IMG/VR virus record: IMGVR_UViG_3300035105_000009
Span: 1-34,521 of that record
Direction: 5' to 3' (one strand)
From: a virus
Lineage: Duplodnaviria; Caudoviricetes
Length of the DNA: 34,521 nucleotides
In this document: one piece after another, positions 1 through 17,140 of the stretch
Position numbering within the stretch: position 1 is the stretch's first letter
Layout: each line of letters opens with the position of its first letter
Position numbers and translations under genes: made by a program
Notes under the pieces: model-generated
The model's input: only the letters and a program-made list of their open reading frames with translations
Told to the model about the DNA's origin: nothing
The model's database searches: none

Positions 1-41
1 CTCATTTTTCTGTGACCGCACAAAAAAGGAAAATATAAAAA

Positions 42-509: not shown

Positions 510-3290
510 ATGACGAGAGACTACACATCAATAGCCTTACAATACTGTGATGACGTGATGTCCGGCAAGAATCCAGCAGGGCCTTATGTTGCAGCGGCCT
601 GTCAGCGACACATTGACGATCTCGAACGGGCAAAGACAGACGATTTTCCCTATGAATATGACGAGGTAAAAGCAAACCGCCGTTGCAGATTTTCAGAATT
701 ACTGCATCACGTAAAGGGAAAATGGGCAGGGGAACGGCTCACCCTGGAACCGCACCAGGTATTTATGCAATGCTGCATATGGGGATGGGTCAAAAAATCC
801 AACGGACTGAGGCGGTTCAGCACTATTTTCATTGAGATTCCACGAAAGAACGGGAAAGCACTTGAAATAAACACCCCAATATTTACCCCAGATGGGTGGA
901 AAAAGCATGGCGATTTAAAGGTTGGAGATTATGTTTTTTCACCAGATGGATTGCCAGTGGCTATTACCGCTATTTCTGAACATTATAGCGGTCCATGTTA
1001 CCAATTAAGTTTCTCCGATGGCGATTCTGTTGTAGCTCATTCTGCCCATGAATGGGTTACAGAACGAACTTGGTACACTAAGCGTCCAAGGGGGCATAGA
1101 GACAAAAGGCCGTTACCCCTTGTTGAAACTAAAGAAATAGCATCCACCTTACGCGGAGGATCGCGCGGAGATTTGATTCATCGAATCAAGGTGGCATGCC
1201 CCCTAGTCCTGCCTGAGCGTGTTTTGCCCATCGATCCATATGTTTTGGGGGCATGGTTAGGAGATGGAACGTCCAGGTCAGCGCAAATAACATGCGCAGA
1301 CGAGGAAATCATAAAACGGATTAGATCGGCGGGTTTACCGGTTAGGCCTCTGCCCTCTTCTGATAACTGGAAGGCATTAACCTATTCGTTATCAGATGGA
1401 AATAAGCAGGGTAGAAATGGACTTATATCAAAACTTAAAGCATTAGATTTGCTGCAAAACAAACATATTCCAGTAGAATACTTTATTGCATCAAAACAAC
1501 AGAGATATGATTTATTGAGGGGAATTCTTGATACTGATGGAACTATAAGCAAGGCTGGGCAAATAAGTCTTACCCTAAAAAGTAAACGCCTCATAAAAGA
1601 TGTGTTGATCTTGGTGAGAACGCTTGGAATAAAAGCTAACCTAAAACAGAAAATAGCAAAAATAGGCGATAAGAATTGTGGAATTGTATATCTGATTCAC
1701 TTTTTTCCACAAAATGGAGAACCGTTATTCTACGTTAGACGGAAGGCTACGCGGCAAAAACCCATTCCAACGGGTAAAAATAGGAGAGCATTAAAAACAA
1801 TATGCAACTCAAAGTATGTTGGGCATAGAATAGTTAACTGTATTACTGTTGAGGGTGGCCTTTACTTGGCGGGGAAAGGTTTTACGATAACTCACAATAG
1901 CGTAGATGCGGCAACCGCAGGACTATATATGCTGGCCGCCGATCACGAGAAGGGCGCCGAGATATACAGCGGTGCCACCAGTGAAAAGCAGGCTCTTGAA
2001 GTATTCCGGCCCGCGTGGATGATGGCGCAGAAAAACGAGTCATTACGGGAAGCCTTTGACCTGTCTCTTTCTGGCAATCCGAAAAACCCCACAAGCATAT
2101 TCAAACTGGAAGATATGTCACGGTTTGAACCGCTGATCGGTAAGCCGGGGGACGGGGCAAGTCCCCATTGTGCCATTATCGATGAATACCACGAACATAA
2201 ATCATCGGATCAGTATGACACCATGGACACGGGAATGGGTGCGAGGGAGCAACCATTGATTTTTGTGATCACTACTGCGGGAACCGACACCTCCGCGCCA
2301 TGCTATGACATGCATTTACGTGCCATAAAGGTACTGGAACGGACTATAGAAGACGAGGCAATGTTTTGTATCATGTACGGGATAGGTGCTGATGACGACT
2401 GGAAAGACTTTGAAGTCTGGAAAAAGGCGAACCCAAATTATGGCGTGAGCGTCATGGAAGATTATCTGTATCGGAAATACAAGGAGACAATGACCAACGC
2501 GGCAAAGCAGAACATTAATCTTTGTAAGCACCTCAACCAGTGGATGAACGCCGGTGTTGCGTGGATGAACATGGCGAAGTGGGAAGCCTGCAAAGATGAA
2601 TCTTTGAGGCTGGAAGATTTCATTGGGCAACCCTGTTTTGCAGCGTTTGACCTTGCATCGAAAATTGACATTTCATCATTGTTGCTTATTTTTGAGTACA
2701 CACGTGAGATAGACGGGGTATTTGTGCGGGGGTATGCGGCATTTTGCAAGCACTATCTCCCCGAGGAAACCGTGAAAAATGCGGGGAATGAGCACTATGA
2801 CAAGTGGGTAAAAGAGGGATATATTACCGAAACCCCAGGGGCTAGAACCGACTTTCTTTATATCGAAAACGATTTAAAGGCTATAAATGCCGATTACCCT
2901 ATTTATGAGCTTGCCTATGATCCCCGCGAAAGCACCTATCTTGTCAACAATGTCATGGATTGGCTGGGGAATGAGAAATGCATTGAGATCACCCAGGGTC
3001 CCGCTTTGATGTCCGAACCGATGAAGGAAGTCGAGGCATTAATCTATGACTGCAAGCTCTGGCATAACGGCGATCCAGTTTTAACGTGGATGATGGGAAA
3101 TATTGTCAAGCGCAAGGGCAGGGATACCGGATCGGTAAAATATTACTATCCCACCAAAGAGCGCGACGAGAACAAAATTGATGGAGGTGTCTGTCTTATC
3201 ATGGCTACTGGCAGGGCGATACTGCACCACGAAGACAGCATGTTTGAAGGCATGACAAAAGATCAAATCTTAGAAAGCATGGCGTTTTGA
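510..3290 (+). CDS. terL: Terminase large subunit, intein-containing
   Basis: Walker A IPRKNGK|S split by an intein, Walker B AIIDEYHEH, ITTAG coupling motif, nuclease motifs FDLASKID and KIDG. Confidence 0.95.
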   Translation: MTRDYTSIALQYCDDVMSGKNPAGPYVAAACQRHIDDLERAKTDDFPYEYDEVKANRRCRFSELLHHVKGKWAGERLTLEPHQVFMQCCIWGWVKKSNGLRRFSTIFIEIPRKNGKALEINTPIFTPDGWKKHGDLKVGDYVFSPDGLPVAITAISEHYSGPCYQLSFSDGDSVVAHSAHEWVTERTWYTKRPRGHRDKRPLPLVETKEIASTLRGGSRGDLIHRIKVACPLVLPERVLPIDPYVLGAWLGDGTSRSAQITCADEEIIKRIRSAGLPVRPLPSSDNWKALTYSLSDGNKQGRNGLISKLKALDLLQNKHIPVEYFIASKQQRYDLLRGILDTDGTISKAGQISLTLKSKRLIKDVLILVRTLGIKANLKQKIAKIGDKNCGIVYLIHFFPQNGEPLFYVRRKATRQKPIPTGKNRRALKTICNSKYVGHRIVNCITVEGGLYLAGKGFTITHNSVDAATAGLYMLAADHEKGAEIYSGATSEKQALEVFRPAWMMAQKNESLREAFDLSLSGNPKNPTSIFKLEDMSRFEPLIGKPGDGASPHCAIIDEYHEHKSSDQYDTMDTGMGAREQPLIFVITTAGTDTSAPCYDMHLRAIKVLERTIEDEAMFCIMYGIGADDDWKDFEVWKKANPNYGVSVMEDYLYRKYKETMTNAAKQNINLCKHLNQWMNAGVAWMNMAKWEACKDESLRLEDFIGQPCFAAFDLASKIDISSLLLIFEYTREIDGVFVRGYAAFCKHYLPEETVKNAGNEHYDKWVKEGYITETPGARTDFLYIENDLKAINADYPIYELAYDPRESTYLVNNVMDWLGNEKCIEITQGPALMSEPMKEVEALIYDCKLWHNGDPVLTWMMGNIVKRKGRDTGSVKYYYPTKERDENKIDGGVCLIMATGRAILHHEDSMFEGMTKDQILESMAF
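858..1898 (+). mobile_element. Class 3 intein (347 aa) with LAGLIDADG endonuclease, in the TerL Walker A motif
   Basis: Begins ALEINTPI and ends THN before Ser+1. Carries W in block B (HEW), C in block F (VNCITV) and T in block G (THN). LAGLIDADG motifs LGAWLGDG and LRGILDTDG. AT-richer than the exteins. Confidence 0.93.
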
Positions 3291-3300
3291 AAGGAGAGAT

Positions 3301-3489
3301 ATGCCCGAGCTACCTAACAAAAAATACCTGACACCACAGGAAGTGGCCGCATTTTACAATCTTAACGTCAAAACCCTCTATGGCTGGATAGCGGAGGGAA
3401 AACTTAATGCGGAACGCATAGGGCCGTCACGAGTATTGAGGATAAGGCGTGAGGTAGCAGAACAATTATCACAACCTGTAGTGGCATAA
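3301..3489 (+). CDS. Excisionase-like HTH_17 DNA-binding protein
   Basis: YLTPQEVAAFYNLNVKTLYGWIAEGKLNA..RIRR pattern; AAGGAG RBS. Confidence 0.85.
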   Translation: MPELPNKKYLTPQEVAAFYNLNVKTLYGWIAEGKLNAERIGPSRVLRIRREVAEQLSQPVVA

Positions 3490-3499
3490 TTACCGTTTA

Positions 3500-3515
3500 C
3501 CACAAAATATAGTGT
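3500..3515. promoter_or_regulatory. NrdR-box-like operator
   Basis: CCACAAAATATAGTGT matches acaCwAtATaTwGtgt at 14/16 positions; intergenic. Confidence 0.45.
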
Positions 3516-3583
3516 CAATCCTGCCTGATTAGTCTGAGGAGTCCGTGAAATAATCCAGAACTATGTAAGATAATTGCTCCATA

Positions 3584-3790
3584 GTGAGGGAAACTATGGG
3601 GCATCTGGTAAAATATATCAAATCTCTTGTATCGAAGTCATGGAATGCCTTTGATGTGAGAGATTTTTTCGTTTTCGGCGGTCTCGGAATGCTTGGATAT
3701 GGCCTCTATCTAAAGTGGGGTCAATGGTTGGCATTCATGGTGTGTGGGATTCTGCTTATGATTATTGGCTATCTCATGAGGGGTAGATAA
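3584..3790 (+). CDS. Small two-TM membrane protein upstream of portal
   Basis: Two hydrophobic segments; TAATG overlap with the portal start; exact start uncertain. Confidence 0.7.
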   Translation: MRETMGHLVKYIKSLVSKSWNAFDVRDFFVFGGLGMLGYGLYLKWGQWLAFMVCGILLMIIGYLMRGR

Positions 3791-5016
3791 TGGGAATAGT
3801 CGCACGGATGCCACGGCCAAAAGGGATGAACCCGCAGGAACTTGAAAGAATGATCTTTTCAGTATTCGGCGGCGGGTCCACGGCATCAGGTGTATCGGTA
3901 AACAACGAAACGGCAATGAGACAGGCAACCGTCTATTCCTGTGTCAATGTTCTGTCGAGAACTATCGGGACATTGCCTTGTCATCTCATGAAAATCGAGG
4001 GGCGAAACCGGGAAAAGGCTATTGATGATGACTTGTATTATCTCCTACATGACCAGCCTAATGAGTGGATGACTGCTCCGGAATTTTGGGGCATGGCGAT
4101 GAATCACCTTTCATTGCGGGGCAATTTCTTTGCTTTGAAGAACCGGGGATTGTCATTGACTGGACCTGTCCGTGAATTAATCCCGTTGGCCCCTGGGGTT
4201 GTACATGAAGTCAAGCAGGATGAGAAATATAGGCTCACATATGTGCTGAAATATCCTGATGGAACTCTGAAAAATGTGCCGCAATCCGAAATCATGCACA
4301 TCCGTGGGATGACTATTAACGGATTTATGGGAGTCAATCCAATACAATACATTCGAGAGTCAATCGCTTTGGGGTTGGCCTCTGAGGAGTTTGGGGCGCG
4401 GTATTTCGGAAGCGGGACACATCCCGGCATGGTTGTAGAGCACCCCGGCAAGCTGTCGCCCGAAGGACACAGCAATCTACAGACAGCACTTGCCGAAACA
4501 TACAGCGGCCTCGGCAAATCCCACCGCCTCATGCTCCTGCAAGAGGGCATGAAATATCAGAAGGTTGCCATCGACCCGAAAGACTCTCAATTTATCGAAC
4601 TGAGAAAATACCAAAAGGCGGAAATAGTTGACATCTTCTTCGGGATGCCTCTGACGATCCTATCATCGGAAGACAAAACACCCACCTACGCCAGCGCAGA
4701 GCAATTCGGAATCAGCTTCGTTGTCTATGCGCTCATGCCTTGGATGGTGGGGATCGAGAAGGCGATACTGCGCGACCTTATTCCGCAAACCAAGAAAAGA
4801 ACCCACTATGCAAAGTTTGTCGCCCAGGGGTTACAGCGAGGGAGCTTCAAGGAGCAGATGGACAGCTTTGCAACGGCAATTACGAAAGAGATAATGAATC
4901 CTAACGAGTGCCGTGAGCTATTAGAAATGAATCCGTACGATGGCGGTGATATATATGCTCCAAGAACATCAACAACCAAGGATGACAAGGCGGAGGCTCT
5001 TTCCTCAAATGAATAA
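3790..5016 (+). CDS. Portal protein, HK97 family
   Basis: TVYSCVNVLS, LLHDQPNEWMT, GNFFA, DSQFIELRKY and MNPNECRELLEMNP motifs. Confidence 0.95.
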   Translation: MGIVARMPRPKGMNPQELERMIFSVFGGGSTASGVSVNNETAMRQATVYSCVNVLSRTIGTLPCHLMKIEGRNREKAIDDDLYYLLHDQPNEWMTAPEFWGMAMNHLSLRGNFFALKNRGLSLTGPVRELIPLAPGVVHEVKQDEKYRLTYVLKYPDGTLKNVPQSEIMHIRGMTINGFMGVNPIQYIRESIALGLASEEFGARYFGSGTHPGMVVEHPGKLSPEGHSNLQTALAETYSGLGKSHRLMLLQEGMKYQKVAIDPKDSQFIELRKYQKAEIVDIFFGMPLTILSSEDKTPTYASAEQFGISFVVYALMPWMVGIEKAILRDLIPQTKKRTHYAKFVAQGLQRGSFKEQMDSFATAITKEIMNPNECRELLEMNPYDGGDIYAPRTSTTKDDKAEALSSNE

Positions 5017-5788
5017 CACTACAGAAAAAAGATGCACTAAGTGCGGAGAAACAAAACTACTTGAATATTTTCATGTTGATAATAGGAAAAAAGACGGCCA
5101 TGTTTCTCGGTGCAAAATGTGCCAATCTAAATACGCCTCAGAACATTATAATGCCAATAAGAGTAAATACAGTAAAATGCGGAAGAACTACTACCAAAAC
5201 AATAAAGATGAAATCCTCGAAAACCAAAGAAAATATTATCAAAGTAATAAAGAACAAAAAACAGTTACTGTCAAAAATTGGAGAAAGAATAATCCAGAAA
5301 AAATAAAAGAGATTATAGAAAGATTTAAACAAAGTCATCCAGATTGCGGCATAAAAGCAACAAAGCGCTGGAGAAAGAATAATCCAGAAAAGGTTAGGGA
5401 ATTAAAACGAAATCAATACGCAAGATATAAAAAAAATCCGGCATTTAGAATTTCTGGAAGCATTTCAAACGGGATTCGATATTCTCTTGGGAAGGGTGGA
5501 AAGTCCCAAAATAAGTGGGAATGTCTTGTAAATTTTACAGCCAAAGAACTTATGTGCCACCTTGAAAAACAGTTTAAAGACGGAATGACATGGGACAATT
5601 ACGGAAATTATTGGCACATAGATCATATTATTCCTATTGCAGTTTTTAATTTTAAAACTCCAGAAGATATTGACTTTAAAAGATGTTGGGCACTGGAAAA
5701 CCTGCAACCATTGGAAGCAAAAGAAAATATGAGAAAAAACGCTAAATTTGATGGTGATTTTCAGCCGTCTCTACCCTTGGCAATTTAG
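5009..5788 (+). CDS. Free-standing HNH homing endonuclease
   Basis: Zn motif CTKC..CKMC, Lys-rich helical region, WHIDHIIP...NLQPLEAKEN. AT-rich. ATG 5009 follows GGAGG and overlaps the portal end. Confidence 0.88.
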   Translation: MNNTTEKRCTKCGETKLLEYFHVDNRKKDGHVSRCKMCQSKYASEHYNANKSKYSKMRKNYYQNNKDEILENQRKYYQSNKEQKTVTVKNWRKNNPEKIKEIIERFKQSHPDCGIKATKRWRKNNPEKVRELKRNQYARYKKNPAFRISGSISNGIRYSLGKGGKSQNKWECLVNFTAKELMCHLEKQFKDGMTWDNYGNYWHIDHIIPIAVFNFKTPEDIDFKRCWALENLQPLEAKENMRKNAKFDGDFQPSLPLAI

Positions 5789-5800
5789 GAGGACAAGACA

Positions 5801-6652
5801 ATGAAACTGGCGTACAGGAGTGAAAAGAACGCTGAGGCTGTCGCCCGCTTTTGGGGGAAATCACTCGAAAAGCCCGACTGGTACCGGATTGAAGCGAAAG
5901 AAACCGACGAGACGGCGGAGATAATAATCTATGACGTGATCGGATGGCCTTATAACGATGCCTTTGATCTTGTCCGCGCCCTTGGAAGCATCAAGGCAAA
6001 GAATATCACCGTCCGCATTAACTCGCCGGGCGGAGATGTTTTTGACGGCGTGGCGATCTTCAACGCGCTCAAAGACCACGAGGCCCATGTCACCACGAAG
6101 ATTGAAGGTCTGGCAGCGTCGATGGCCTCCGTCGTTGCCCTCGCCGGTGACGAAGTTCAGGCACACAAGAACGCCATGTACATGATTCACGATCCGTGGG
6201 TGCTGGCGGCTGGCAACCAGTACGACCTTAGAGAGATAGCCGACATCCTCCAGAAGATCGGCGGGAACATGCTGGATATCTATTACGACAAATCGAATAT
6301 CGGCAAGCGTGAACTCAAGGCCATGATGAAAGAAGAAACATGGTTCACGGCTCAGGAAGCCAAAGACCGGGGATTGATCGATACCGTTGTTGATGCAGGC
6401 GCGGCAAAGGCAAAGTTTGACCTGTCTATTTTCGCAAACGTCCCTGACGAACTGGAAGACTCTGACCGGGAGGGGGCAACACTCAGTAAACAAGAGATAG
6501 AGCGTGCCCTGCGTGATGCAGGCGCAAGCCGATCTTTCGCGAAGTCCATAGCTGCGCGACGCAGTAATGGCGACTCCCAGCGCGATGTTGGGAGCGTAAA
6601 GGCAGACATTGGCAAGATACTGAAACTACAACAGATAATAGGAGGTAAGTAA
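5801..6652 (+). CDS. ClpP-type prohead maturation protease
   Basis: RINSPGGDVFDG, GLAASMAS, MIHDPW and ETWFTAQEA motifs; lies between portal and capsid. Confidence 0.93.
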   Translation: MKLAYRSEKNAEAVARFWGKSLEKPDWYRIEAKETDETAEIIIYDVIGWPYNDAFDLVRALGSIKAKNITVRINSPGGDVFDGVAIFNALKDHEAHVTTKIEGLAASMASVVALAGDEVQAHKNAMYMIHDPWVLAAGNQYDLREIADILQKIGGNMLDIYYDKSNIGKRELKAMMKEETWFTAQEAKDRGLIDTVVDAGAAKAKFDLSIFANVPDELEDSDREGATLSKQEIERALRDAGASRSFAKSIAARRSNGDSQRDVGSVKADIGKILKLQQIIGGK

Positions 6653-6654
6653 AA

Positions 6655-7866
6655 ATGGATATCAATCAAGTAATAGAAGACCTGGGGCGGTCATTCGAGA
6701 CCTTCAAGGCCGAGAACGACAAACGCCTGAAAGAGATCGAGACGAAGGGCAACGCTGACCCGCTGCTTGTGGAAAAGGTGGAGAAGATTAACGCGGAAAT
6801 CTCGCAGATTGCGGCGATGAAGAAACAGCTTGAAGCCCTCGAAACCGTGGCCGGACGCGGCGCATTTGGCGGTGGAACATCTGAACTGGATCAGGCGAAG
6901 GCTGAATACAAGGCTGGCTTTGAGAAATGGTTCCGCAAAGGAGTTGAAGGCAATCTCGCTCAGTTAGCGGTACAGGCTTCCGCTTCTACACTGGATGATA
7001 CGGCGGGCGGTTTTACCGTGCCTGAGGAAATGGCAGCGACTATAGATCGGATCGCTGGCGTATCTTCTGCAATGCGGCGGCTTGCCTCCGTGATCACCAT
7101 CGGGACAGACACTTACAAAAAACTCGTAAACCAGGGCGGGGCTTCCTCCGGGTGGGTAGGCGAGAAGGGTACGCGGTCTGAGACCGATTCTCCGACGCTT
7201 AAAGAGATCGCCATCAACACGAAAGAGATTTACGCGATGCCAGCAGCGACGCAGAAACTACTCGATGACTCCAGCGTTGATATAGCTGCATGGCTCGGCA
7301 ACGAAGTAGCAATTGAATTCGCCGAGGAAGAAGGCGCGGCCTTCATCGAAGGCGACGGTGTGTCTGAGCCGAAAGGACTTGAATCATACGACACGGTGGC
7401 AAACGCTTCTTATGCGTGGGGTAAGATCGGCTATATCGCCAGCGGAGCAGCTTCGGCCTTCACCAATGCTGACAAGCTCTTCGACCTTCAGCACGCACTG
7501 AAACCGATCTACAGAAACGGGGCATCATTCTTGATGAACGATGCAACCCTGCTCCATATCCGAAAGTTCAAAGACGGTGAGGGTAATTACCTCTGGAGAC
7601 CGGGCCTGCTGGAAGGCGCGCCTGATACTCTGCTGGGTAAGCCTGTTGAGATCGACGACAACGTGGCAGACATCGGCGCCGGGGCTTATCCGATTTACTT
7701 CGCCAATTTCAAACGGGCTTATCTGATCGTTGACCGCTTCGGCATTCGTGTCCTGCGTGACCCCTATTCGAGCAAGCCCTACATTCTCTTCTATACCACG
7801 AAGAGAGTGGGGGGCGGGATCGTGATGTACGAAGCGATTAAGGCCCTGAAGATAGCGACCAGCTAA
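6655..7866 (+). CDS. Major capsid protein, HK97 fold
   Basis: Coiled-coil delta domain, GGFTVPEE, LLDDSSVDI, GDGVSEPKG, YTTKRVGG. Confidence 0.95.
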   Translation: MDINQVIEDLGRSFETFKAENDKRLKEIETKGNADPLLVEKVEKINAEISQIAAMKKQLEALETVAGRGAFGGGTSELDQAKAEYKAGFEKWFRKGVEGNLAQLAVQASASTLDDTAGGFTVPEEMAATIDRIAGVSSAMRRLASVITIGTDTYKKLVNQGGASSGWVGEKGTRSETDSPTLKEIAINTKEIYAMPAATQKLLDDSSVDIAAWLGNEVAIEFAEEEGAAFIEGDGVSEPKGLESYDTVANASYAWGKIGYIASGAASAFTNADKLFDLQHALKPIYRNGASFLMNDATLLHIRKFKDGEGNYLWRPGLLEGAPDTLLGKPVEIDDNVADIGAGAYPIYFANFKRAYLIVDRFGIRVLRDPYSSKPYILFYTTKRVGGGIVMYEAIKALKIATS

Positions 7867-7874
7867 ACTTAACC

Positions 7875-7890
7875 GGGGGCTCCGGCCCCC
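7875..7890 (+). terminator. GC hairpin with C(UCCG)G tetraloop after the capsid gene
   Basis: GGGGGC-TCCG-GCCCCC; no U-tract, so a weak terminator or a 3' stabiliser. Confidence 0.5.
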
Positions 7891-7920
7891 ACTCAATAAG
7901 ATTTGAAGGAGGCAAAAACC

Positions 7921-8367
7921 ATGAAAGATTCTTATAATCACTTAGTACCGGTTCAGGCCGTAGTGCCGGTTAAAGTTCTGGACGATACCGTTCCCGCTGC
8001 GGCAGAAATTGATCTGGCTGATTTCAACTCGGCTTTGATCGTTATCAGTTGTGGCGACAAGGTTGCTGGTGATACCGGGACAATCGATGTGGCTTTAACC
8101 CATGCCGACGATGATGGCACCGGTTCATCCGGCGATTATGCCGATGTTACTTCGGCTGATGTCCTTGGCCCGGAAGCGGTAACCAGTGGCGTCATCAAAA
8201 GCCTCGCAAGTGGGGCCGTCGCGGCTGCGATTTACAAAGTCGGCTATGTCGGCGGGAAACGATTCATCAAGATCACCGTCACGGAAACTGGTGGCAACGC
8301 CACCGGCACGATGATGTCAATCAATGTCATCAAAAGCCATGGGCTCGATGTACCGGCGATAAGCTAA
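7921..8367 (+). CDS. Putative capsid-associated (decoration/cement) protein
   Basis: AAGGAGG RBS, follows the capsid gene, beta-rich, YKVGYVGGKRFIK motif. Confidence 0.65.
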   Translation: MKDSYNHLVPVQAVVPVKVLDDTVPAAAEIDLADFNSALIVISCGDKVAGDTGTIDVALTHADDDGTGSSGDYADVTSADVLGPEAVTSGVIKSLASGAVAAAIYKVGYVGGKRFIKITVTETGGNATGTMMSINVIKSHGLDVPAIS

Positions 8368-8439
8368 ATAAACTGAGTGCCAGGGGGCTTGCCTACCTCT
8401 CCAGGCAGCCCCCCCCCTCCCAAAAAATGAAAGGAGGTA

Positions 8440-8967
8440 ATGGAGATGGCAGTAGCAAGAATAGGAAGTTTGGGAAACCGATTTGTCGGTCTTTCAACCG
8501 ACACAAAACCAACAACGAACACACAAATTGGCGCAACGTATTTGGAGTATGATACCGGGAAGCTCTACACGACCCCGGACGGCGAGAACTGGATACTGAA
8601 AAGCGCAGAGGGCGCATTATTCCAGACCACGACAATCGACCTCGAACAGGCGGCGGGAGATTATGACCTCTTTACCGCCGGGCTGTCTGATGTGGAGATC
8701 CTACACCTGACAATTATCATTCCTTCTGACCTCACGGCTGAGGCGACCTTAACCTCAATCTCCATCCAGTCAACAGATGACACCCCTGTGGAATTCATAA
8801 GCGCAACAGCCGGGGCGGTGGCGAACCTGACCGCGAACAAATATCTCCAATATAATGCCGGGGAAACAGTAGCCGGAGGGAAGAAAATCCAGCTCACCAT
8901 TGCGGGCGGAGCAACGGCGGCGGCACAGGTCTGCACGGTCTTTATAGCGTATAGAGAGGCGGTGTAA
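8440..8967 (+). CDS. Putative virion decoration protein
   Basis: N-terminal GLSTDTKPT...EYDTGKLY module; C-terminal domain paralogous to 11159-11602. Confidence 0.65.
   Translation: MEMAVARIGSLGNRFVGLSTDTKPTTNTQIGATYLEYDTGKLYTTPDGENWILKSAEGALFQTTTIDLEQAAGDYDLFTAGLSDVEILHLTIIIPSDLTAEATLTSISIQSTDDTPVEFISATAGAVANLTANKYLQYNAGETVAGGKKIQLTIAGGATAAAQVCTVFIAYREAV
8812..8921 (+). repeat. 110-bp perfect direct repeat, copy 1
   Basis: Identical to 11423-11532. Confidence 0.93.
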
Positions 8968-8969
8968 TC

Positions 8970-9824
8970 ATGGGCGATACATTATGGACAAGAGGACTGG
9001 CGGCTCTAAGGGGATTTTTGGGCGGCGGAACGGCAAAATCATCCATAGCTGACGGCGATAAACTATTAGTATCTGATAGTGAGGCAAGCAACGCGCTGAA
9101 AACGGTGCTCTATTCCGTTCTAAAGTCGCAGGTAGTAAGCGATATTGCGCCGATTACTTACGAGGGGTCTATTGATTGTTCAGGCAGCCCCAACTATCCT
9201 GCCGCGGACGCTGGGCACGCCTATATCGTATCTGTAGCTGGAAAGATTGGAGGGGCATCTGGCGTTGTCGTGGCCGCAGGAGATATGGCTATATGTAAGA
9301 CTGATAGTACTGCATCGGGAGATCAAGCCACCGTCGGGGCAAATTGGAATATCATTGAGAAGAACATCGACTTGACGAACATTACTATCACTGGTGGGAC
9401 GATAGATGGGACTACTATTGGGGGCACAACGCCTGCAAACGGTGATTTTCTTCTCTTGACTGGAAATTTTAACGAAATAGTACAAGCATCCTCTGATACC
9501 CTCACAGCAGCAGAAGTCAAGGGAACGGTTATAAACAACTACGGTCAAGGTGCGGCTGATAACCTTCAAGCTCTCCCCACGGCAGAAGAAGGTATGTCCT
9601 TCATGGCTGTATGCGGTACGGCTCAAGCGGCTAACTACTTCGGCTTTCAGGCTGACACGAATGACAAGATATACCTTGACGGTACAGCAGGAAGCGACAA
9701 CGGCATTGTGAAGATAGCGGCTCCAGTTGTCGGTGCGAAGATATACTTCCACACCTTCCAGACAGGAGCTGGTGCTTGGGATTGGATGGCTGATACGATA
9801 ACCGGCGCATGGGTAGCAGCGTAA
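8970..9824 (+). CDS. Putative head fibre/decoration protein
   Basis: Gly/Ala/Thr-rich, ITITGGTIDGTTIGGTTPA fibre-like segment, located in the head module. Confidence 0.6.
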   Translation: MGDTLWTRGLAALRGFLGGGTAKSSIADGDKLLVSDSEASNALKTVLYSVLKSQVVSDIAPITYEGSIDCSGSPNYPAADAGHAYIVSVAGKIGGASGVVVAAGDMAICKTDSTASGDQATVGANWNIIEKNIDLTNITITGGTIDGTTIGGTTPANGDFLLLTGNFNEIVQASSDTLTAAEVKGTVINNYGQGAADNLQALPTAEEGMSFMAVCGTAQAANYFGFQADTNDKIYLDGTAGSDNGIVKIAAPVVGAKIYFHTFQTGAGAWDWMADTITGAWVAA

Positions 9825-9834
9825 GGAGGTAACT

Positions 9835-11154
9835 ATGCTTAGACCAATACCACAGGAAATAGTTTACAAAGGCACAATATCAGACCTCCGCATAAGTGCA
9901 GTTGATGGAACAGCGTTTATTGATAACTGCTCTGCCATTACAACTTACGCCGACAACGCCCACCGAGTAGAGATATACGACTCCGCAGGTAAGAGGCTTG
10001 TAGGCATAGCGAAAGAGGCGGGGAGTGGGGAAAGCTTAGAGATAGCCGACCCGATTGTCTCTATTTCTAAGAGCAATCCCGGCATTATCAATCTTGGTAC
10101 TGGACATGCGTTTAGTGATGGCGACCTGTTGAAGTTCTCTGGTTTATCGGAGATGACAGAGCTTAATGGAGAATATTCTACGCTTGCGGAAACAGCGTCC
10201 GATGCCTGGGTACAAGTAGCACCTACATTAGAATCACAGACCTACATCCTCTCTCTTGCAGTATTCAACGGGAAGCTCTACGGAGGAACTTCTCCTGGCG
10301 GTAGATTATTCGAGTGGAACGGCACGGATGCCTGGGTACAAGTAGCACCTACATTAGAATCACAGACCTACATCCACTCTCTTGCAGTATTCAACGGGAA
10401 GCTCTACGGAGGAACTTATCCTGGCGGTAGATTATTCGAGTGGAACGGCACGGATGCCTGGGTACAAGTAGCACCTACATTAGAATCACAGACCTACATC
10501 CTCTCTCTTGCAGTATTCAACGGGAAGCTCTACGGAGGAACTTATCCTGGCGGTAGATTATTCGAGTGGAATGGTACGGATGCCTGGGTACAAGTAGCAC
10601 CTACATTAGAATCACAGACCTACATCCGCTCTCTTGCAGTATTCAACGGGAAGCTCTACGGAGGAACTTCTCCTGGCGGTAGATTATTCGAGTGGAACGG
10701 CACGGATGCCTGGGTACAAGTAGCACCTACATTAGAATCACAGACCTACATCCGCTCTCTTGCAGTATTCAACGGGAAGCTCTACGGAGGAACTTATTCT
10801 GGCGGTAGATTATTCGAGTGGAACGGCACGGATGCCTGGGTACAAGTAGCACCTACATTAGAATCACAGACCTACATCCTCTCTCTTGCAGTATTCAACG
10901 GGAAGCTCTACGGAGGAACTTCTCCTGGCGGTAGATTATTCGAGTGGAACGGCTGGTACGAAATTAAAGACACCTCCTCATATACTGCGGAAATTACAGG
11001 AGGCAATTGTGCACAGAAGGTAACAGCCCCCTCTACCGATGGAATCATAATAGTCAACGCTAAAGGCGGAAGCACCGAGAATTTCACAAGTGTTGACGCT
11101 GGATTTACTTACAACGCGGCGAGTTACACCGTAATTGTTAAAAAACTTAGGTGA
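9835..11154 (+). CDS. Virion protein with a six-blade beta-propeller inserted in an E1_FCCH-like domain
   Basis: ISKSNPG..GHAFSDGD..SGLSEMTELNG before and DTSSYTAEITGG after six 42-aa repeats. Confidence 0.75.
   Translation: MLRPIPQEIVYKGTISDLRISAVDGTAFIDNCSAITTYADNAHRVEIYDSAGKRLVGIAKEAGSGESLEIADPIVSISKSNPGIINLGTGHAFSDGDLLKFSGLSEMTELNGEYSTLAETASDAWVQVAPTLESQTYILSLAVFNGKLYGGTSPGGRLFEWNGTDAWVQVAPTLESQTYIHSLAVFNGKLYGGTYPGGRLFEWNGTDAWVQVAPTLESQTYILSLAVFNGKLYGGTYPGGRLFEWNGTDAWVQVAPTLESQTYIRSLAVFNGKLYGGTSPGGRLFEWNGTDAWVQVAPTLESQTYIRSLAVFNGKLYGGTYSGGRLFEWNGTDAWVQVAPTLESQTYILSLAVFNGKLYGGTSPGGRLFEWNGWYEIKDTSSYTAEITGGNCAQKVTAPSTDGIIIVNAKGGSTENFTSVDAGFTYNAASYTVIVKKLR
10201..10953 (+). repeat. Six tandem 126-bp coding repeats
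   Basis: Units start at 10201, 10327, 10453, 10579, 10705 and 10831; nearly identical. Confidence 0.97.
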
Positions 11155-11158
11155 TAAA

Positions 11159-11602
11159 ATGAAGAGATACTTACACATAGGGCTCGCATTGGTATCATTC
11201 TGGACGTTGAAAAATCCCGCATCTCAATTGACGGTGAAGAAGCTCATTAATCTTAAACAGGCCGCCGGTGACTACGATCTGTTTACGGCGACAACGCAGA
11301 ATATTTTCATTGATTTCTTGACCATAGTAATTCCGGAGGATTTGACCGAAGAAGAAAACCTAACGGCAATATCTATCCAATCGACGGATGTATCGCCTGT
11401 GGAATTTATCAGCGCAACGGCGGGGGCGGTGGCGAACCTGACCGCGAACAAATATCTCCAATATAATGCCGGGGAAACAGTAGCCGGAGGGAAGAAAATC
11501 CAGCTCACCATTGCGGGCGGAGCAACGGCGGCAGATTGTAATTGCCTTGTGTATGTTTCATACAGGCCGGTTGTCGATGGTGGTTATCTGGCGGCGGCAT
11601 AA
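11159..11602 (+). CDS. Paralog of the 8440-8967 C-terminal domain
   Basis: Shares QAAGDYDLFTA...SIQSTD..PVEFISATAGAVANLTANKYL...; ATG follows AGGTGA. Confidence 0.75.
   Translation: MKRYLHIGLALVSFWTLKNPASQLTVKKLINLKQAAGDYDLFTATTQNIFIDFLTIVIPEDLTEEENLTAISIQSTDVSPVEFISATAGAVANLTANKYLQYNAGETVAGGKKIQLTIAGGATAADCNCLVYVSYRPVVDGGYLAAA
11423..11532 (+). repeat. 110-bp perfect direct repeat, copy 2
   Basis: Identical to 8812-8921; offset 2611 bp. Confidence 0.93.
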
Positions 11603-11630
11603 AATTTGAATCTGAAAAGGGAGTAGCGCA

Positions 11631-11834
11631 ATGCCAAGCGGAAATGGATTCATAATTACAAAGGACACATGGGAGCGCACTCCCCAGGAACAACGTGACT
11701 GGATCATGTTTGAGACTGTCCAGAGCATGAATGACCGCCTGAAGGTACTTGAACGCTGGAACAAGGCCATGTCGTTCGCGGGCGGTATTACCGGCGGCAT
11801 TGCGGCGGTAATCGTAACTAAATTTTGTATGTGA
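11631..11834 (+). CDS. Holin-like small protein (coiled coil plus C-terminal TM)
   Basis: RLKVLERW followed by a hydrophobic tail; upstream of the endolysin. Confidence 0.55.
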   Translation: MPSGNGFIITKDTWERTPQEQRDWIMFETVQSMNDRLKVLERWNKAMSFAGGITGGIAAVIVTKFCM

Positions 11835-11842
11835 GGGAAATC

Positions 11843-11896
11843 ATGAGTAGCAGAAAAATAAAAGACCTAACACCCAGGATGCAGGAGAAAATCTTG
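11843..11896 (+). pseudogene. Orphaned duplicate 5' end of the endolysin gene
   Basis: Encodes MSSRKIKDLTPRMQEKIL, the same 18 aa as 12511-12564. Confidence 0.85.
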
Positions 11897-11902
11897 CACT
11901 TG

Positions 11903-12445
11903 CTATTTATTGCTACGGGATTTGTTGAATTGAATAATAGCGGAAACTCGGTCCCTGCGTGGAATCTCCCATCTATCAAACAGAGCCTTCACGCCTCCGC
12001 GTGCTTTAAGCCCAAGACGAGTCGCAATCTGGCTGAAGCTCAAACCTTCATCCCAATACATTCTTTTAAGTTCATCAAGGTCATATTTGGTTCGACTTCT
12101 GTTTATCCATTCTACAGCATTGGAAAGTTTCTCTACTTTGAGAGGGCAGAAAAAGCCGATGAGGTCGGCAAACTTAAGAATATCTTTTTGTCTGTAAATC
12201 ATAACATTGTGAACCTGTTTCCAGTGTGGTTTGGACATTTTCTTTCGAGAGCTAAGAACACAATGTATTCCAAAGTGTTTAAGATATTCAAGGCATGTGT
12301 TTATAATTACCATGTCAGTATTTGCCATGGAAATATGGTGCATAGCATGGCGTTTTCTGGTGCCGCTTCCCCTAAAGAAAATTGTTCCTTCGCCATCGAA
12401 AATACCTCGAAGCCATCCTTTCTTGAATTCGTCGCTGTGATCCAT
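11903..12445 (-). CDS. Free-standing single-motif LAGLIDADG homing endonuclease with C-terminal HTH
   Basis: GWLRGIFDGEG, ISMANTD, ELKRMYWDEGLSFSQIATRLG; AGGAGG RBS at 12451-12456. Confidence 0.9.
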   Translation of the reverse strand: MDHSDEFKKGWLRGIFDGEGTIFFRGSGTRKRHAMHHISMANTDMVIINTCLEYLKHFGIHCVLSSRKKMSKPHWKQVHNVMIYRQKDILKFADLIGFFCPLKVEKLSNAVEWINRSRTKYDLDELKRMYWDEGLSFSQIATRLGLKARGGVKALFDRWEIPRRDRVSAIIQFNKSRSNK

Positions 12446-12488
12446 GGTTTCCTCCTGTGTTTATTGTTCTCACTTCGTATGCAGGTAA

Positions 12489-12517
12489 ACTATATATGCA
12501 GGGAGATGTTATGTCAA
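12489..12517 (-). promoter_or_regulatory. Sigma70-type promoter for the LAGLIDADG gene
   Basis: TTGACA (12517-12512), 17-bp spacer, TATAGT (12494-12489). Confidence 0.75.
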
Positions 12518-12963
12518 GTAGAAAGATAAAGGATTTAACGCCAAGGATGCAAGAAAAAATACTCTTTTTTGAGCGTTGCCTAAATGAAGCTGGCTTAGGA
12601 CATTTTAAGAAGTGTTCTACTTTTCGGTCTCAACTTGAGCAGGACGCACTCTATATGCAGGGCCGGAAGCCTCTTGAGGAGGTCAACGCGGCACGAAGGG
12701 CGGTTGGCCTGTGGGAGATTGACGAGTCAACCAATAAGCGCAAGGTCACTTGGGTCAAGGTATCTGTCCATACCAGCCGGGAAGCCGTGGACTACTTCGC
12801 CCTTGTGGATGGGAAGTATTGCAACGATCTGAAAGTGGATGTTGACAAGGATTCGATCCCCGACTGGCAGGAGTTCGGGAAAATTGCCGAGGAATGCGGT
12901 TTGACCTGGGGCGGTCGGTGGAGATCGCCTGACTATCCCCATGTGCAATGGAGGGATGTTTAA
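12511..12963 (+). CDS. Endolysin, peptidase M15 (L-Ala-D-Glu peptidase-like)
   Basis: FRSQLEQDALYMQGR, SVH...AVD, GLTWGGRW, DYPHVQ; GGGAG RBS. Confidence 0.9.
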   Translation: MSSRKIKDLTPRMQEKILFFERCLNEAGLGHFKKCSTFRSQLEQDALYMQGRKPLEEVNAARRAVGLWEIDESTNKRKVTWVKVSVHTSREAVDYFALVDGKYCNDLKVDVDKDSIPDWQEFGKIAEECGLTWGGRWRSPDYPHVQWRDV

Positions 12964-13052
12964 TGACTTGGTGGATATGGGCTATGGCTGGTGTAGCTGT
13001 TGGGGTGATAGTTTGGATATTAGGGCAAGCGTATTTTAGAGGTGAATTGTAA
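12963..13052 (+). CDS. 29-aa single-TM peptide (not in the ORF track)
   Basis: MTWWIWAMAGVAVGVIVWILGQAYFRGEL; TAATG overlaps at both ends. Confidence 0.6.
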   Translation: MTWWIWAMAGVAVGVIVWILGQAYFRGEL

Positions 13053-13450
13053 TGGGCGTTTTAGGGAGTCTTTTTGGAAACGCAAAGGTAGTCGATACCG
13101 TAGCTGATACCGTAAAGAGTGGTGTCGGGATGCTTGACAACGCATTCTACACTGATCAAGAGAAAGCTGCCGATGCCGGGAAAATGATGGATACATGGCT
13201 AAAAATTCAGCAGACCACGGCAGGTGAGAACTCCATCCGGTCAATTACGCGCCGGGTGTTGGCATGGGTAATCATGGGAGTGTACGTCGTGATCGTCCTT
13301 TTTGCCTGTGTGGTCTGGAAGTTCGATGCGGCGTGGGCGGGATACATTAAGGGGATACTGACAGAGACGAACTTGAGCTACCTTGCCTTGATTGTGGGGT
13401 TCTTCTATTTTGGCTCTTACGCGGTCGGGCAGTATATAAAAAAGGAATAA
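13052..13450 (+). CDS. Holin-like membrane protein (3TM/GTA-holin-like)
   Basis: FYTDQEKA, RSITRRVLAW, two TM segments, IVGFFYFGS. Confidence 0.65.
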   Translation: MGVLGSLFGNAKVVDTVADTVKSGVGMLDNAFYTDQEKAADAGKMMDTWLKIQQTTAGENSIRSITRRVLAWVIMGVYVVIVLFACVVWKFDAAWAGYIKGILTETNLSYLALIVGFFYFGSYAVGQYIKKE

Positions 13451-13452
13451 CG

Positions 13453-14061
13453 ATGAGAATCACAACCACAATAGCCCCGGCAGTCGAGCCCGTAACGCTC
13501 ACGGAGGTCAAAATCCATCTCGGCCTTGCCACAACGGAAGCAGGGGCGGCGGCCTATACGAATCAAGATGCGCTACTCAACCGGCTCATAACGACTGCAC
13601 GGACACAGGCTGAGCAGGAAACAGGCCGGGCATTTATCACGCAGACAAAAACAATGTATCTGGATGCGTGGCCGGATGGAACCTTTATCAGGCTGCCTTA
13701 TCCCGCTTTGCAATCGGCAACCGTAACATATCGGCTGGAAGATGATGACGACTATGACGAGACCCTTTCCACGGTGGACACAGACATCGTAAGCGAGCCG
13801 GGGCGGGTGGTCTTGCAACCAAACGAATCATGGCCCTCTGGCACCCTCTACACTGACAGACCGATCAAGATAGTCTTTGTGTGCGGGTACGGGGATGATG
13901 CCGATGATGTGCCGGAGAATATCAAGTCTGCAATGCTCCTGAAAATCTCTGACCTCTACGAGAACCGGGGTGAAGTGGTCATGGGGGTGTCGGTGGGCAG
14001 GATCACGGATGCCGTTGACTCATTGCTGAGACAGTATCGTATACATTGGGAGTTTGACTGA
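13453..14061 (+). CDS. Head-tail connector (phiE125 gp8/gp6-like)
   Basis: PAVEPVTLTEVKIHL, TGRAFITQT, GYGDDADDVPENIK, LYENRG. Confidence 0.9.
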   Translation: MRITTTIAPAVEPVTLTEVKIHLGLATTEAGAAAYTNQDALLNRLITTARTQAEQETGRAFITQTKTMYLDAWPDGTFIRLPYPALQSATVTYRLEDDDDYDETLSTVDTDIVSEPGRVVLQPNESWPSGTLYTDRPIKIVFVCGYGDDADDVPENIKSAMLLKISDLYENRGEVVMGVSVGRITDAVDSLLRQYRIHWEFD

Positions 14062-14558
14062 TGCGAGCCGGGCGAATGGACAGAATCGTGACCCTCCGTG
14101 AAAAGGTCACCTCCGAAAACGCATTCGGGGAGCAGATCGAGACGTGGATTGATCTTGTCCAGACCGGAACGGAGATTGCCACGGGAACCCTGACAGCGGG
14201 GACGCTTTACCAGATCACAGCGACAGAGGAAGATCACTTCGGATCGGGGGTTGTAGCATACGACACCTTTATCGCGGCGGGAACCGAGACATGCAACGCC
14301 GCAAACAAGGTCAAACCCGTGACACTCCCCGCTACTGTATGGGCGGAGCGGCTGGAACTGAGGGGTGATGAAAAATATCAATCTATGCAGGTCGTGGGAG
14401 AAATCCAATGCATATATAGAATCCGGTATAGAGATGATGTCTCTACCCTCAATATATTCGTTGATAATGAAGACGAAAAAGAGTATAATATTAGTTATAT
14501 TAAGCAATTAGGGCGTAGGAAAGGTTTGGAAATAACGGCAAGCACCAGGAGCGAGTAG
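14061..14558 (+). CDS. Head closure/head-tail adaptor with internal insertion
   Basis: MRAGRMDRIVTL, FGEQIETW, ATVWA, RIRYRDDV. Confidence 0.85.
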   Translation: MRAGRMDRIVTLREKVTSENAFGEQIETWIDLVQTGTEIATGTLTAGTLYQITATEEDHFGSGVVAYDTFIAAGTETCNAANKVKPVTLPATVWAERLELRGDEKYQSMQVVGEIQCIYRIRYRDDVSTLNIFVDNEDEKEYNISYIKQLGRRKGLEITASTRSE

Positions 14559-14563
14559 GAACT

Positions 14564-15496
14564 ATGGGCGAACTTTACCAACTATCTTTTCCGCAAAGTG
14601 GAAAGTCATATATAGGGATTACAACTAAAACATCTTTATGGAGATATAAAATTCACGAGAAGATGGTTAACGGTAGAAACTACCCTCTTTATAATGCATG
14701 GCGAAAATATGGAGCGCCAGATCTTAAGGTTTTGGCAGTTCTTGAAGATGAGGAGCTGGCTGGCAACGAAATTAGAGCCATAAGAGCTCTAAACACTCTT
14801 GCGCCTAATGGGTATAATCTCTCTTTGGGTGGAGAATTAGCTCCCGGCAAAAACCCTCTTATAGCCAAGAAAATATCAACATCACTTACTGGCAAAAAGT
14901 TGTCTCAAAAAACGAAAGACAAGATAGGTGCTATTCATAGAGGTAAAACACTTTCTGATGGGCATAAGGCTGCAATAAGTAAAAGACATTTAGGCAGTCA
15001 TTTGTCCGAAGAACACAAGGCAAAATTAGCCAAGTCAAACAGAGGGAAACCACATCTGCGGGGGTGGAAACATACTGCCGAGACATGCAAAAAAATAAGC
15101 GAGAAATTAACAGGGAGAAGGAAATCACCTGAAGCGATTGAAAATATGAGGAAGGCAATAACCGGAAGGCATCTATCTGAAGAACATAAAAAAAAGATTG
15201 GATTGTCCGGTATTGGGAGAAAGCACAGTCCAGAATCCATAGCGAAAATGAAAGCATATAAATTCTCTGATGGACATAGGGCAAGCTTAAGCCTCTCGGC
15301 TCTGGGGAATAAGAATGGAACTGGGAATTGTAATTCAAGGCCAGTTTTAGACACAACAACAGGAGAGGTTTTTGTTTGTGCGGCATTGGTTGCTAAAACT
15401 CGCGGAATTAAAAGAACGACATTGCATAATTGGCTTAATAATATCAGCAAGCCACAAAACGGAGAATCCAATAGATATTGTTATGTGGAGGGGTGA
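14564..15496 (+). CDS. Free-standing GIY-YIG homing endonuclease with NUMOD3 repeats
   Basis: GELY..KSYIGIT, PNGYNLSLGGE, repeated H(L)SEEHK.K(I/L) motifs; AT-rich. Confidence 0.9.
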   Translation: MGELYQLSFPQSGKSYIGITTKTSLWRYKIHEKMVNGRNYPLYNAWRKYGAPDLKVLAVLEDEELAGNEIRAIRALNTLAPNGYNLSLGGELAPGKNPLIAKKISTSLTGKKLSQKTKDKIGAIHRGKTLSDGHKAAISKRHLGSHLSEEHKAKLAKSNRGKPHLRGWKHTAETCKKISEKLTGRRKSPEAIENMRKAITGRHLSEEHKKKIGLSGIGRKHSPESIAKMKAYKFSDGHRASLSLSALGNKNGTGNCNSRPVLDTTTGEVFVCAALVAKTRGIKRTTLHNWLNNISKPQNGESNRYCYVEG

Positions 15497-15499
15497 ATA

Positions 15500-17140
15500 A
15501 TGCCGCAACCCGCTTTTAAATTTGAGCTTCACGGCCTGAAAGAGTGTATGGACGCGCTTGACCAGCTTCCGACTCTTTCTATGAAGCGCGGAGTTGTGCG
15601 CAATGCCCTGAAGAAAGCGGCTATCCCCATCAAAGACCGTGCCAAAGAGAACGCGCAGGGCATCAAAATTGATAATCCCGGCGTAATAGCTGAATCGGTG
15701 AAGATTGGAACGAGCTTGAAAAAGTCACAGCGGGGAAGAACGGAGCGGGACAGGGTTACGGTGTACGTGGGATCTTCTCATCCACTCTGTATATTTGGAT
15801 CGGGGACAGTGATTGCGACAAAAGGAAAATCCAAAAAGGTTGGATGTGTCAGGGTGGGAGATGAAGTAATGACGCAGACTGGAGAATATAAAAAAGTGGT
15901 TGCAGTGCAGTCATTTCCGGCAACGCTTAAACCTAATATTGTAGAGATTACAACAGAGAAACATACGCTTAATGTTACGGAAGATCATAAAATTTTAATT
16001 CATAGGGATGGACGGAATAAATGGGTTCTGGCTGGCGAACTTTTGGAAACAGACAAAATGTATGTCAGGAAAAAACTTGGAGCGAACAAAGGTACTGGCA
16101 AGGCTTTAATTTGCCAAAACTGCGGGAAAGAGTTTCGGTCTGGGGTGGATCACGATCCACAAACTAAATACTGCTCTATGGAATGCGTCAGAGATGCCTT
16201 TAAGGGGAAGTTAATTACTTGTAGATATTGTAGAAAGCAATTTCGTTCAAACGGAAAGATAGGAAGACAGCGAATTTATTGTAGCCGAGAATGTTATATA
16301 AAAGATGCCACAAGGAAAAATCTTTTTAGCCATACATTCTCAATTGAATCAAGGAAAAAGATGAGTGAAAAAATAAAGGCAAGATTATTACGAGACCCCG
16401 AATCTCATCCGAATAAAATTATGTGCAAAAAGGGGCATCAAACAGAATATGAGGCGAAGGTAGAAGCATGGTTAAAAGAAAGGGGAGTTAAATATGAAAA
16501 ACAAAAGCAGATAGGCCGTTATTTTGTGGATTTTTATGTCCCAGAAATTCAAACGATATACGAGGCAGATGGCGCATATTGGCATAAGAATCAGATGAAT
16601 GACATAAAAAGAGATGCTGGTATAAAAAAAGTTATGCCCGATGCGAAAATCATTCATATTCATTTCTACGATGAAAGGCATAGTCCTGAAAACATGGATA
16701 GGACGCCGTTACCTGACGTTCACTATGTCGCATGCAACCCAGGCCCTAATTCATATACAAACCCAGAAATGATTGAAACACAGGGAATTGTGTCAATAAA
16801 AAAATGGGAATACAGCCAATCAAGAAAGGGGCCTGCTTCAAAACTGTACGATATATCGGTAGAAGGAGTGCATTCTTTCTTTGCGAACGGGCTTCTTGTC
16901 TCTAATAGCCACCTTTTCGAGTTCGGGACCGCCGAACGATACAAGAAAAGCGGGGCCTATACTGGGTATATTCCCCCGATGCCGTTTATGCGGGAAGCGT
17001 GGGATAGCAAAAAGAAGGTATCCCTTGACATCCTGAAAGAGGAGTTGTGGAAGGCTCTTGAGAAGGCGGCGAAGTTGCTAGCCAAGAAAGCAGCTCGCGG
17101 CACTCTAACTAAAAAGCAAATCGCCGGGTTGAGCAAATGA
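15500..17140 (+). CDS. HK97 gp10-like tail component, intein-containing
   Basis: Exteins join to 173 aa: VRNALKKAAIPIKDRAK...VGSSHPL|SHLFEFGT...PPMPFMREAWD. Confidence 0.88.
   Translation: MPQPAFKFELHGLKECMDALDQLPTLSMKRGVVRNALKKAAIPIKDRAKENAQGIKIDNPGVIAESVKIGTSLKKSQRGRTERDRVTVYVGSSHPLCIFGSGTVIATKGKSKKVGCVRVGDEVMTQTGEYKKVVAVQSFPATLKPNIVEITTEKHTLNVTEDHKILIHRDGRNKWVLAGELLETDKMYVRKKLGANKGTGKALICQNCGKEFRSGVDHDPQTKYCSMECVRDAFKGKLITCRYCRKQFRSNGKIGRQRIYCSRECYIKDATRKNLFSHTFSIESRKKMSEKIKARLLRDPESHPNKIMCKKGHQTEYEAKVEAWLKERGVKYEKQKQIGRYFVDFYVPEIQTIYEADGAYWHKNQMNDIKRDAGIKKVMPDAKIIHIHFYDERHSPENMDRTPLPDVHYVACNPGPNSYTNPEMIETQGIVSIKKWEYSQSRKGPASKLYDISVEGVHSFFANGLLVSNSHLFEFGTAERYKKSGAYTGYIPPMPFMREAWDSKKKVSLDILKEELWKALEKAAKLLAKKAARGTLTKKQIAGLSK
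15788..16906 (+). mobile_element. Intein (373 aa) with zinc-finger repeats and DUF559/Vsr-like endonuclease
   Basis: Cys1 (CIFGSGT), block B VTEDHKIL, block F LYDISVEGVHSFFANG, terminal SN before Ser+1. Internal CxxC..YCSxEC twice and YFVDFY..IYEADGAYWH. Confidence 0.9.

Follow-up and report, generated by a model that had tools for sequence, protein, structure and literature searches.

An antisense LAGLIDADG cassette in a phage lysin gene carries a replacement gene start and likely homes without splicing

Why does a phage lysin gene begin twice? The window analyzed here, a linear virus record of 34.5 kb (34,521 nt) with HK97-type head and tail genes, encodes the same 18-codon peptide at 11843–11896 and again at 12511–12564. 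The two copies are equal at 18 of 18 amino acids, yet 15 of their 54 nt and 12 of their 18 codons differ, and between them, on the minus strand, lies a LAGLIDADG gene (ORF 11903–12445; LAGLIDADG_3 match, E = 4.8e-10). The second copy has its own ribosome-binding site, AGGGAG (12500–12505, plus strand), 5 nt ahead of its ATG, and opens a 150-aa M15 peptidase ORF (Peptidase_M15_4, PF13539, E = 9.2e-10) that matches a PHROG endolysin (E = 6.3e-17). The original prediction held that the element had inserted into the 5′ end of the endolysin gene and repaired it with a recoded, cleavage-resistant start, making splicing unnecessary. Our comparisons argue strongly for a model in which an antisense LAGLIDADG cassette in lysin codons 16–20 brings a ribosome-binding site and codons 1–42 with it and likely homes without splicing. 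The replacement codons likely keep the lysin working and likely shield it from cutting.

The lysin gene and its insert belong to the phage late region. Upstream are a 67-aa gene (11631–11834, plus strand), the resident ribosome-binding site of the old lysin start, GAGGG (11833–11837, plus strand), and the stranded resident start itself, codons 1 to 16.2 (11843–11889, plus strand), which would serve as a left homology arm. The left junction zone (11890–11902, plus strand), which encodes the stub residues K-I-L-H, may be resident or element-derived; in two homologues (P0004 and P0005), residue 19 is H, comparable to this stub. The endonuclease gene has a ribosome-binding site, AGGAGG, at 12451–12456 (minus strand). 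Beyond it lie the cassette-borne lysin codons 1–42 (12511–12636, plus strand) and the resident lysin body (12637–12963, plus strand), in which H87, D94, and H144, which we take to be the M15 zinc ligands (His/Asp/His), are invariant across 42 sequences. A genome scan found no close lysin; the nearest in named genomes, from Syntrophorhabdus, Dissulfurispiraceae, and Syntrophus bins, reached 59–60%, and an anaerobic host akin to these is only a guess. Among the distant lysins, one ORF (L042) is a lysin read through into a second cell-wall-hydrolase-like ORF, and another locus (L041) has a stop at that point.

That the gene is interrupted, and nothing further, favors a self-splicing intron or an assembly artefact, and we consider this reading exceedingly improbable. 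Positions 11600–13100 gave no Rfam match up to E = 1, and the ORF runs antisense and has no intein domain, so it is not an intein. With a second ribosome-binding site and ATG, the gene has no need of splicing, in agreement with the original prediction. Single contigs in three of four runs (X9, X12, and X14) cover the stub, the endonuclease, and the new start, and both copies are also present on three other viral contigs; together these rule out an assembly chimera, with the reservation that the oil-field runs (X9, X12, and X14) and the contigs may represent one campaign.

Alleles that have no insert indicate which of the two copies is resident. A pattern scan of metagenome contigs returned 18 loci, none with two start matches; one (L045), which had matched by chance, was set aside, leaving 17 lysins, all of them further than 11 of 54 nt from copy 2. 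Across 12 loci, there were at most two lysin start copies per locus. In three empty loci (L048, L049, and L054), a window-like upstream gene end, with the same ribosome-binding site before the ATG, continues directly into the lysin; a homologue of the 67-aa gene abuts the lysin start in these loci and in the distant L023. At the 10 codons among codons 1–15 where the copies differ, the three loci carry the copy 1 codon in 23 of 30 cells, the copy 2 codon in 1, and neither in 6, and over codons 1–15, they lie 5–6 of 45 nt from copy 1 versus 12–13 of 45 from copy 2. Empty alleles from X20, X21, and X22 (three aquatic runs from two studies, out of four runs compared) pass from 11889 to 12637 with 79 other letters between. 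The 47 nt on the left and these 79 make 126 nt, or 42 codons; thus, the empty gene is in frame. Because these alleles consist of copy 1 to 11889, the 79 letters, and then 12637 onward, the resident start is copy 1, and it is exactly codons 1–42 that the cassette swaps. Left of the joint, X20 and X21 differ from the window only upstream of 11843; their lysin genes therefore begin with exactly the letters of the stub. The comparison that makes copy 1 resident extends over 47 nt (11843–11889), and stub codons 16–20 may be resident or element-borne; the left junction falls somewhere from 11889 to 11902, inside these codons.

Since the empty alleles carry copy 1 codons joined to the downstream gene body, insertion into the endolysin 5′ end and the supply of a replacement start, both proposed from the window alone, are borne out comparatively. 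The right boundary, which a switch in codon usage had placed at about 12633, lies at 12636/12637. Read from copy 2, third positions are G or C in 13 of codons 1–42, in 14 of the 20 codons 43–62, and in 27 of the 38 codons 63–100.

Comparison of invaded loci bears the marks of mobility. An identity island common to the window and a divergent phage (L006) spans 11793–12668, with 0 differences over 796 aligned nt, whereas beyond it, 22 of 162 nt differ upstream and 34 of 174 downstream (12727–12900). Not one letter of the cassette differs between two phage backgrounds with lysin bodies 20% apart, and the same cassette on diverged backgrounds is, at the level of sequence, a homing signature. The whole-cassette contig from X9, X12, and X14 has 7 other letters (11837, 11869, 11876, 11887, 12642, 12669, and 12687), three of which fall in the stub, and is invariant over 11888–12641. 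Two of the three stub changes restore codons of the empty loci, which indicates that the stub is exchangeable resident DNA and that the left crossover fell within it. Presence/absence polymorphism with co-conversion of flanks is thus seen in the run contigs and L006, and the L006-type lysin body occurs in four states: empty (X20–X22), invaded (X9, X12, and X14), broken (L006, in which an 80-nt deletion shifts the endonuclease frame after about 33 residues), and enzyme-less (X18, a contig of depth 3 only, in which the stub runs straight into copy 2 codons 17–20). The endonuclease-free locus L049, an independent example of the enzyme-less state, is 12 of 45 nt from copy 2 in codons 1–15, yet only 2 of 81 in codons 16–42, with codons 24 and 27 native-like; from its close relative L054 it differs at 22 of 81 nt in codons 16–42 and at 6 of 114 in codons 63–100. 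We read the L049 and X18 alleles as probable products of deletion or repair at short identity around codons 15–17. Alternatively, L049 could be an ancestor or source of the tract rather than a product.

The claim that the N terminus is recoded holds in part. Over the 18 shared codons, the changes are synonymous, but over all 42 they are not purely so: codon 36 (12616–12618, plus strand), a candidate escape change, encodes Ser, whereas the residue is Cys in all 79 aligned homologues that cover it, within the conserved stretch F32–Q44 where the tract ends. Ser36 of the replacement tract is also found in L049. As to how the recoding arose, the DNA does differ, but some of the difference may come from capture of a natural allele, and part of it builds a predicted endonuclease promoter. 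Codons 1–15 of copy 2 are 27% divergent, which is inside the range of the lysin body against related alleles (16–39%, codons 63–137), so the tract may partly have been captured. It could also have diverged after duplication in place, and no donor allele for the new codons 1–15 was found.

A divergence within the natural range would also suit an ordinary free-standing homing endonuclease accompanied by an adjoining lysin allele from a donor phage, with a cut outside codons 16–43 or a tract that is not specially resistant, and with the stub left over as a scar from the founding recombination and now acting as a homology arm. Codon 2 is Ser in both copies but from different codon families, as two separate alleles might be; T4-type enzymes cut far from their own genes (PMC2988022), and gene fragments next to phage endonucleases have been proposed as recombination substrates (PMC10055350), according to the accessible text of these papers. 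Nonetheless, we find this explanation unlikely. The invariant core of the X9/X12/X14 contig is confined to 11888–12641, so the cut should fall in the replaced native stretch; moreover, Ser36 is absent from all 79 homologues, and exactly this tract is kept in the endonuclease-less alleles.

The endonuclease is a 180-aa protein with one LAGLIDADG motif (PF14528, E = 4.8e-10) and a C-terminal helix-turn-helix-like (HTH-like) domain, as judged from Pfam, where the match to the tail is weak, a family alignment, a structural model, and fold matches. Residues D17-G18-E19-G20 are conserved in 90% or more of 59 aligned sequences of about the same length, and E19 is presumably the motif's acidic catalytic residue; the presence of a single motif leads us to presume a homodimer. 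The best structural matches of the alignment-based model (pLDDT 95.6, compared with 43 for a single-sequence fold) are homing endonucleases, namely I-Vdi141I, I-OnuI, I-CeuI, and I-CreI, with E about 5e-5 to 2e-4 and TM about 0.4 over the whole protein. At E = 0.001, a full HMMER profile search yielded 556 relatives, versus 2 by a word-indexed homologue search, and the 74 representatives at E = 1e-10 or better point to an uncharacterized family of compact single-motif LAGLIDADG-HTH nucleases.

How the endonuclease might be expressed is suggested by a predicted sigma-70 promoter at 12489–12517 (minus strand; 11 of 12 positions), with −35 TTGACA at 12517–12512, a 17-nt spacer, and −10 TATAGT at 12494–12489; the replacement lysin ribosome-binding site lies within the spacer. 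The predicted −35 hexamer is the reverse of nt 2–7 of the new lysin start, inside codons 1–3. Its score was reached in 2 of 5000 shuffles of the region, and the window has just one other 11/12 site, which shortly precedes a second endonuclease gene. In L048 and L049, where codon 2 is Ala, a single change would give the −35 hexamer, which would explain why copy 2 uses a Ser codon from the other family. A 10/12 plus-strand promoter-like site (12279–12307) lies inside the endonuclease gene, aimed at the new lysin start, and is taken out by the L006 deletion.

The 8-mer TATGCAGG occurs twice around the endonuclease −10 box (12478–12502) and again in lysin codons 48–51 (12654–12661), with a fourth occurrence elsewhere in the window, and a 7-mer of it in stub codons 13–15 is altered in copy 2. 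The repeat is a possible operator, but taken alone it is not significant, since a comparable one appeared in 643 of the 20000 shuffled sequences and in 21 of the 531 real windows. This direct repeat and the C-terminal HTH-like domain would fit a domesticated DNA-binding regulator, LAGLIDADG and helix-turn-helix being combined in WhiA, with the module spread by ordinary recombination under selection for the phage. Such a role is very improbable given that the Glu at the catalytic position is conserved in the family, that the gene is patchily present, frameshifted in one copy, and lost in others, that relatives occupy an unrelated target gene, and that the phage has at least four other endonuclease or intein genes.

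Together, the alleles are consistent with a homing cycle that starts with transcription of the endonuclease from the predicted promoter, its −35 box spelled by new codons 1–3. Upon co-infection, the enzyme would cut an uninvaded lysin gene within codons 16–43. Repair would then join resident DNA on the left up to about codon 16 and on the right from codon 43, leaving the old start as a stub next to a hybrid lysin, and these are the joints and the outcome that allele comparison reveals. The new tract would resist cutting, and its divergent codons 1–15 would steer left-side repair to the stub, a route by which the endonuclease is inherited, and would slow deletion between the copies. Finally, the enzyme would decay or be lost while the new tract stays, each state being found among the alleles and their order being one that we infer.

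The closest precedents for such a cycle are the WHO elements of Torulaspora and Lachancea, which replace the 3′ half of FBA1, strand the old half, and involve no splicing (PMC7282813; bioRxiv 10.64898/2026.08.13.744650). In the accessible text of these sources, WHO cleavage is demonstrated and WHO endonucleases decay; in that of the 2026 preprint (bioRxiv 10.64898/2026.08.13.744650), gene-end replacement is a rare third category of homing element, found at one yeast gene, and resistant alleles carry rare residues at conserved positions at the cut site. As far as these texts allow a comparison, the lysin cassette resembles WHO in having a LAGLIDADG enzyme and no intron or intein, in swapping part of a host gene for an allelic variant and stranding the old part, in its decaying endonucleases, and in a rare residue at a conserved position, here Ser36. 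In contrast, WHO enzymes have two LAGLIDADG motifs as well as a zinc finger and form tandem clusters, whereas the cassette's has 180 aa, one motif, and an HTH-like tail. WHO swaps the 3′ half of FBA1, whereas the cassette swaps the 5′ end of a phage lysin, with the endonuclease antisense, and replacement of a 5′ end requires a new ribosome-binding site. Unlike WHO, the cassette also has a predicted promoter inside its replacement codons, and cleavage by its enzyme is predicted from comparison of sequences.

Two other systems are informative, again within the accessible text of the sources. Fungal mitochondrial mORFs, in Glomus atp6, atp9, cox2, and nad3 and, as cited there, in Allomyces atp6, bring foreign C-termini (PMC3630166; partial duplications also in PMC6279837). 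Like the cassette, they place an endonuclease ORF between a replacement end and the displaced native end, produce a hybrid gene, and are far more divergent in DNA than in protein; however, mORF ends are C-terminal and mitochondrial, whereas the cassette's is N-terminal, antisense to its enzyme, and in a bacteriophage. The mORF ends are foreign; for the cassette's, which may be foreign too, no donor was found. T4 Seg and Mob enzymes are free-standing and intergenic and cut hundreds to thousands of bases away (PMC2988022), and the HEG-islands of ICP1-like phages include gene fragments as possible recombination substrates (PMC10055350). Free-standing phage endonucleases share with the cassette intronless homing, flank co-conversion, high-identity islands, and gene fragments, but they are intergenic, whereas the cassette sits inside the coding sequence of its inferred target, and the accessible parts of these two papers describe no gene-start replacement. 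Nor did we find a replacement gene start in a phage described in the full-text literature searched, which included few subscription papers and no supplements, and the part of PMC12724721 that was accessible contains nothing relevant to one. By sequence, then, the cassette appears to work like WHO and mORFs and belongs to neither, given its domain layout, its 5′ position, its antisense enzyme, and its phage setting.

The WHO comparison also bears on where the enzyme might cut. Because the preprint describes a trade of conserved residues at the cut site, to which Ser36 may be compared, we lean slightly toward a cut at the conserved motif, codons 32–44, over one at the left junction. A left-junction cut, at codons 16–20, is suggested by the fact that the stubs end there and is possible, though we think it has well under an even chance. 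Inspection of L048 and L054 by eye revealed no convincing palindromic target in codons 13–22 or 32–44. A 7-bp hairpin at 11880–11898 was rejected both as a target, its right arm being out of register in the empty loci, and as a terminator, no T-run following it on the endonuclease strand.

A motif scan gave 58 viral loci, 3 of which are copies of the lysin cassette. Besides these, four loci scored above 160 bits with the family profile (the next scored 81), and all four (L098, L143, L104, and L107) carry the endonuclease antisense next to one and the same target, a small basic phage gene of 60 aa. In two of them, L098 (1013–1612) and L143 (977–1579), a stub some 12 codons long, preceded by a ribosome-binding site of its own, lies at the enzyme stop, and a full, divergent start of the small basic gene lies on the enzyme's other side; the L143 stub was found by eye and, compared with its replacement, is below the 5-of-8 threshold. 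Neither L104 nor L107 shows a stub, and in L107 the endonuclease is downstream of the small basic gene. The stub-plus-new-start layout thus appears to recur in another gene in 2 of the 4 closest endonuclease relatives. A tblastx search of the flanks of 10 endonuclease loci returned only the window's own duplication; since it missed the short L098 and L143 stubs, it says nothing on L141, L133, L090, L091, and L113. Within the window, no second stub-plus-replacement pair was found at 7 identical residues.

The stub itself may do more than mark the insertion. From the old ATG, a 228-codon open frame (11843–12529, plus strand) runs antisense to and in register across the endonuclease gene and ends inside codons 6–7 of the new start; it has no PHROG hit. 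None of the three codons that would close this frame occurs among the 14 Leu and 13 Ser codons of the enzyme gene, the chance of which, expected from the phage's own usage, is 1e-3 to 1.5e-4. In other genes, 15 of 485 overlapping 180-codon windows were equally open, as were 0 of 146 low-GC windows. A function for the frame, in preventing polarity or coupling translation to the new start, is conceivable, although we are inclined to doubt it. Counting against a general role, the frames that open at the stubs are much shorter in L098 (27 codons) and L143 (33 codons), and the one in L006 ends after about 150.

The window carries several other candidate mobile elements and repeats. In the head-completion gene region (14061–15496), the 3′ end of the gene is divergent relative to L006 and L007, and the window's other 11/12 sigma-70 site, at 14461 (plus strand), sits in that divergent end. 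About 100 nt after it comes a GIY-YIG/NUMOD3-type endonuclease gene (14564–15496); at the same position, L006 has a different endonuclease-like ORF and L007 has none. This region is likely a second homing cassette with a promoter inside a swapped gene end. An AT-rich endonuclease VII/HNH-like ORF (4940–5788) overlaps the end of the portal gene and abuts the head protease gene, and no 7-residue duplication of either neighbor was found with it. The large terminase subunit (510–3290) has a LAGLIDADG domain between its ATPase segments, probably an intein, and an HK97-gp10-like gene (15500–17140) contains Hint/intein and DUF559 domains. Two paralogous genes (8440–8967 and about 11160–11602) share a long near-identical stretch (8647–8927/11258–11538). 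A 439-aa gene (9835–11154) has tandem 126-nt repeats at 10200–10950, and where it matches L003 and L004, the alignment is interrupted at 10574/10579 and recurs at offsets.

In its fullest form, our proposal is that a third class of homing element, free of splicing, exists in phages as a 5′ mirror of WHO, for which this family of single-motif LAGLIDADG-HTH enzymes has specialized; that the replacement start rescues the lysin, escapes cutting, and encodes the −35 box; that the stub is a translated 228-codon leader ferrying ribosomes to the new start; and that the whole cycle is present in one lineage. Taken jointly, we put these statements forward tentatively, at a little below an even chance. 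If they are true, the expression of a selfish gene would be written into an essential lysin gene, and the replacement start would escape cutting by giving up an otherwise invariant cysteine. As all allele states are in hand, cleavage, resistance, and inheritance can be tested directly on short DNA substrates. Such a cassette would explain how endonucleases may invade conserved coding DNA without introns, and it predicts hybrid phage genes in which start and body have different histories.
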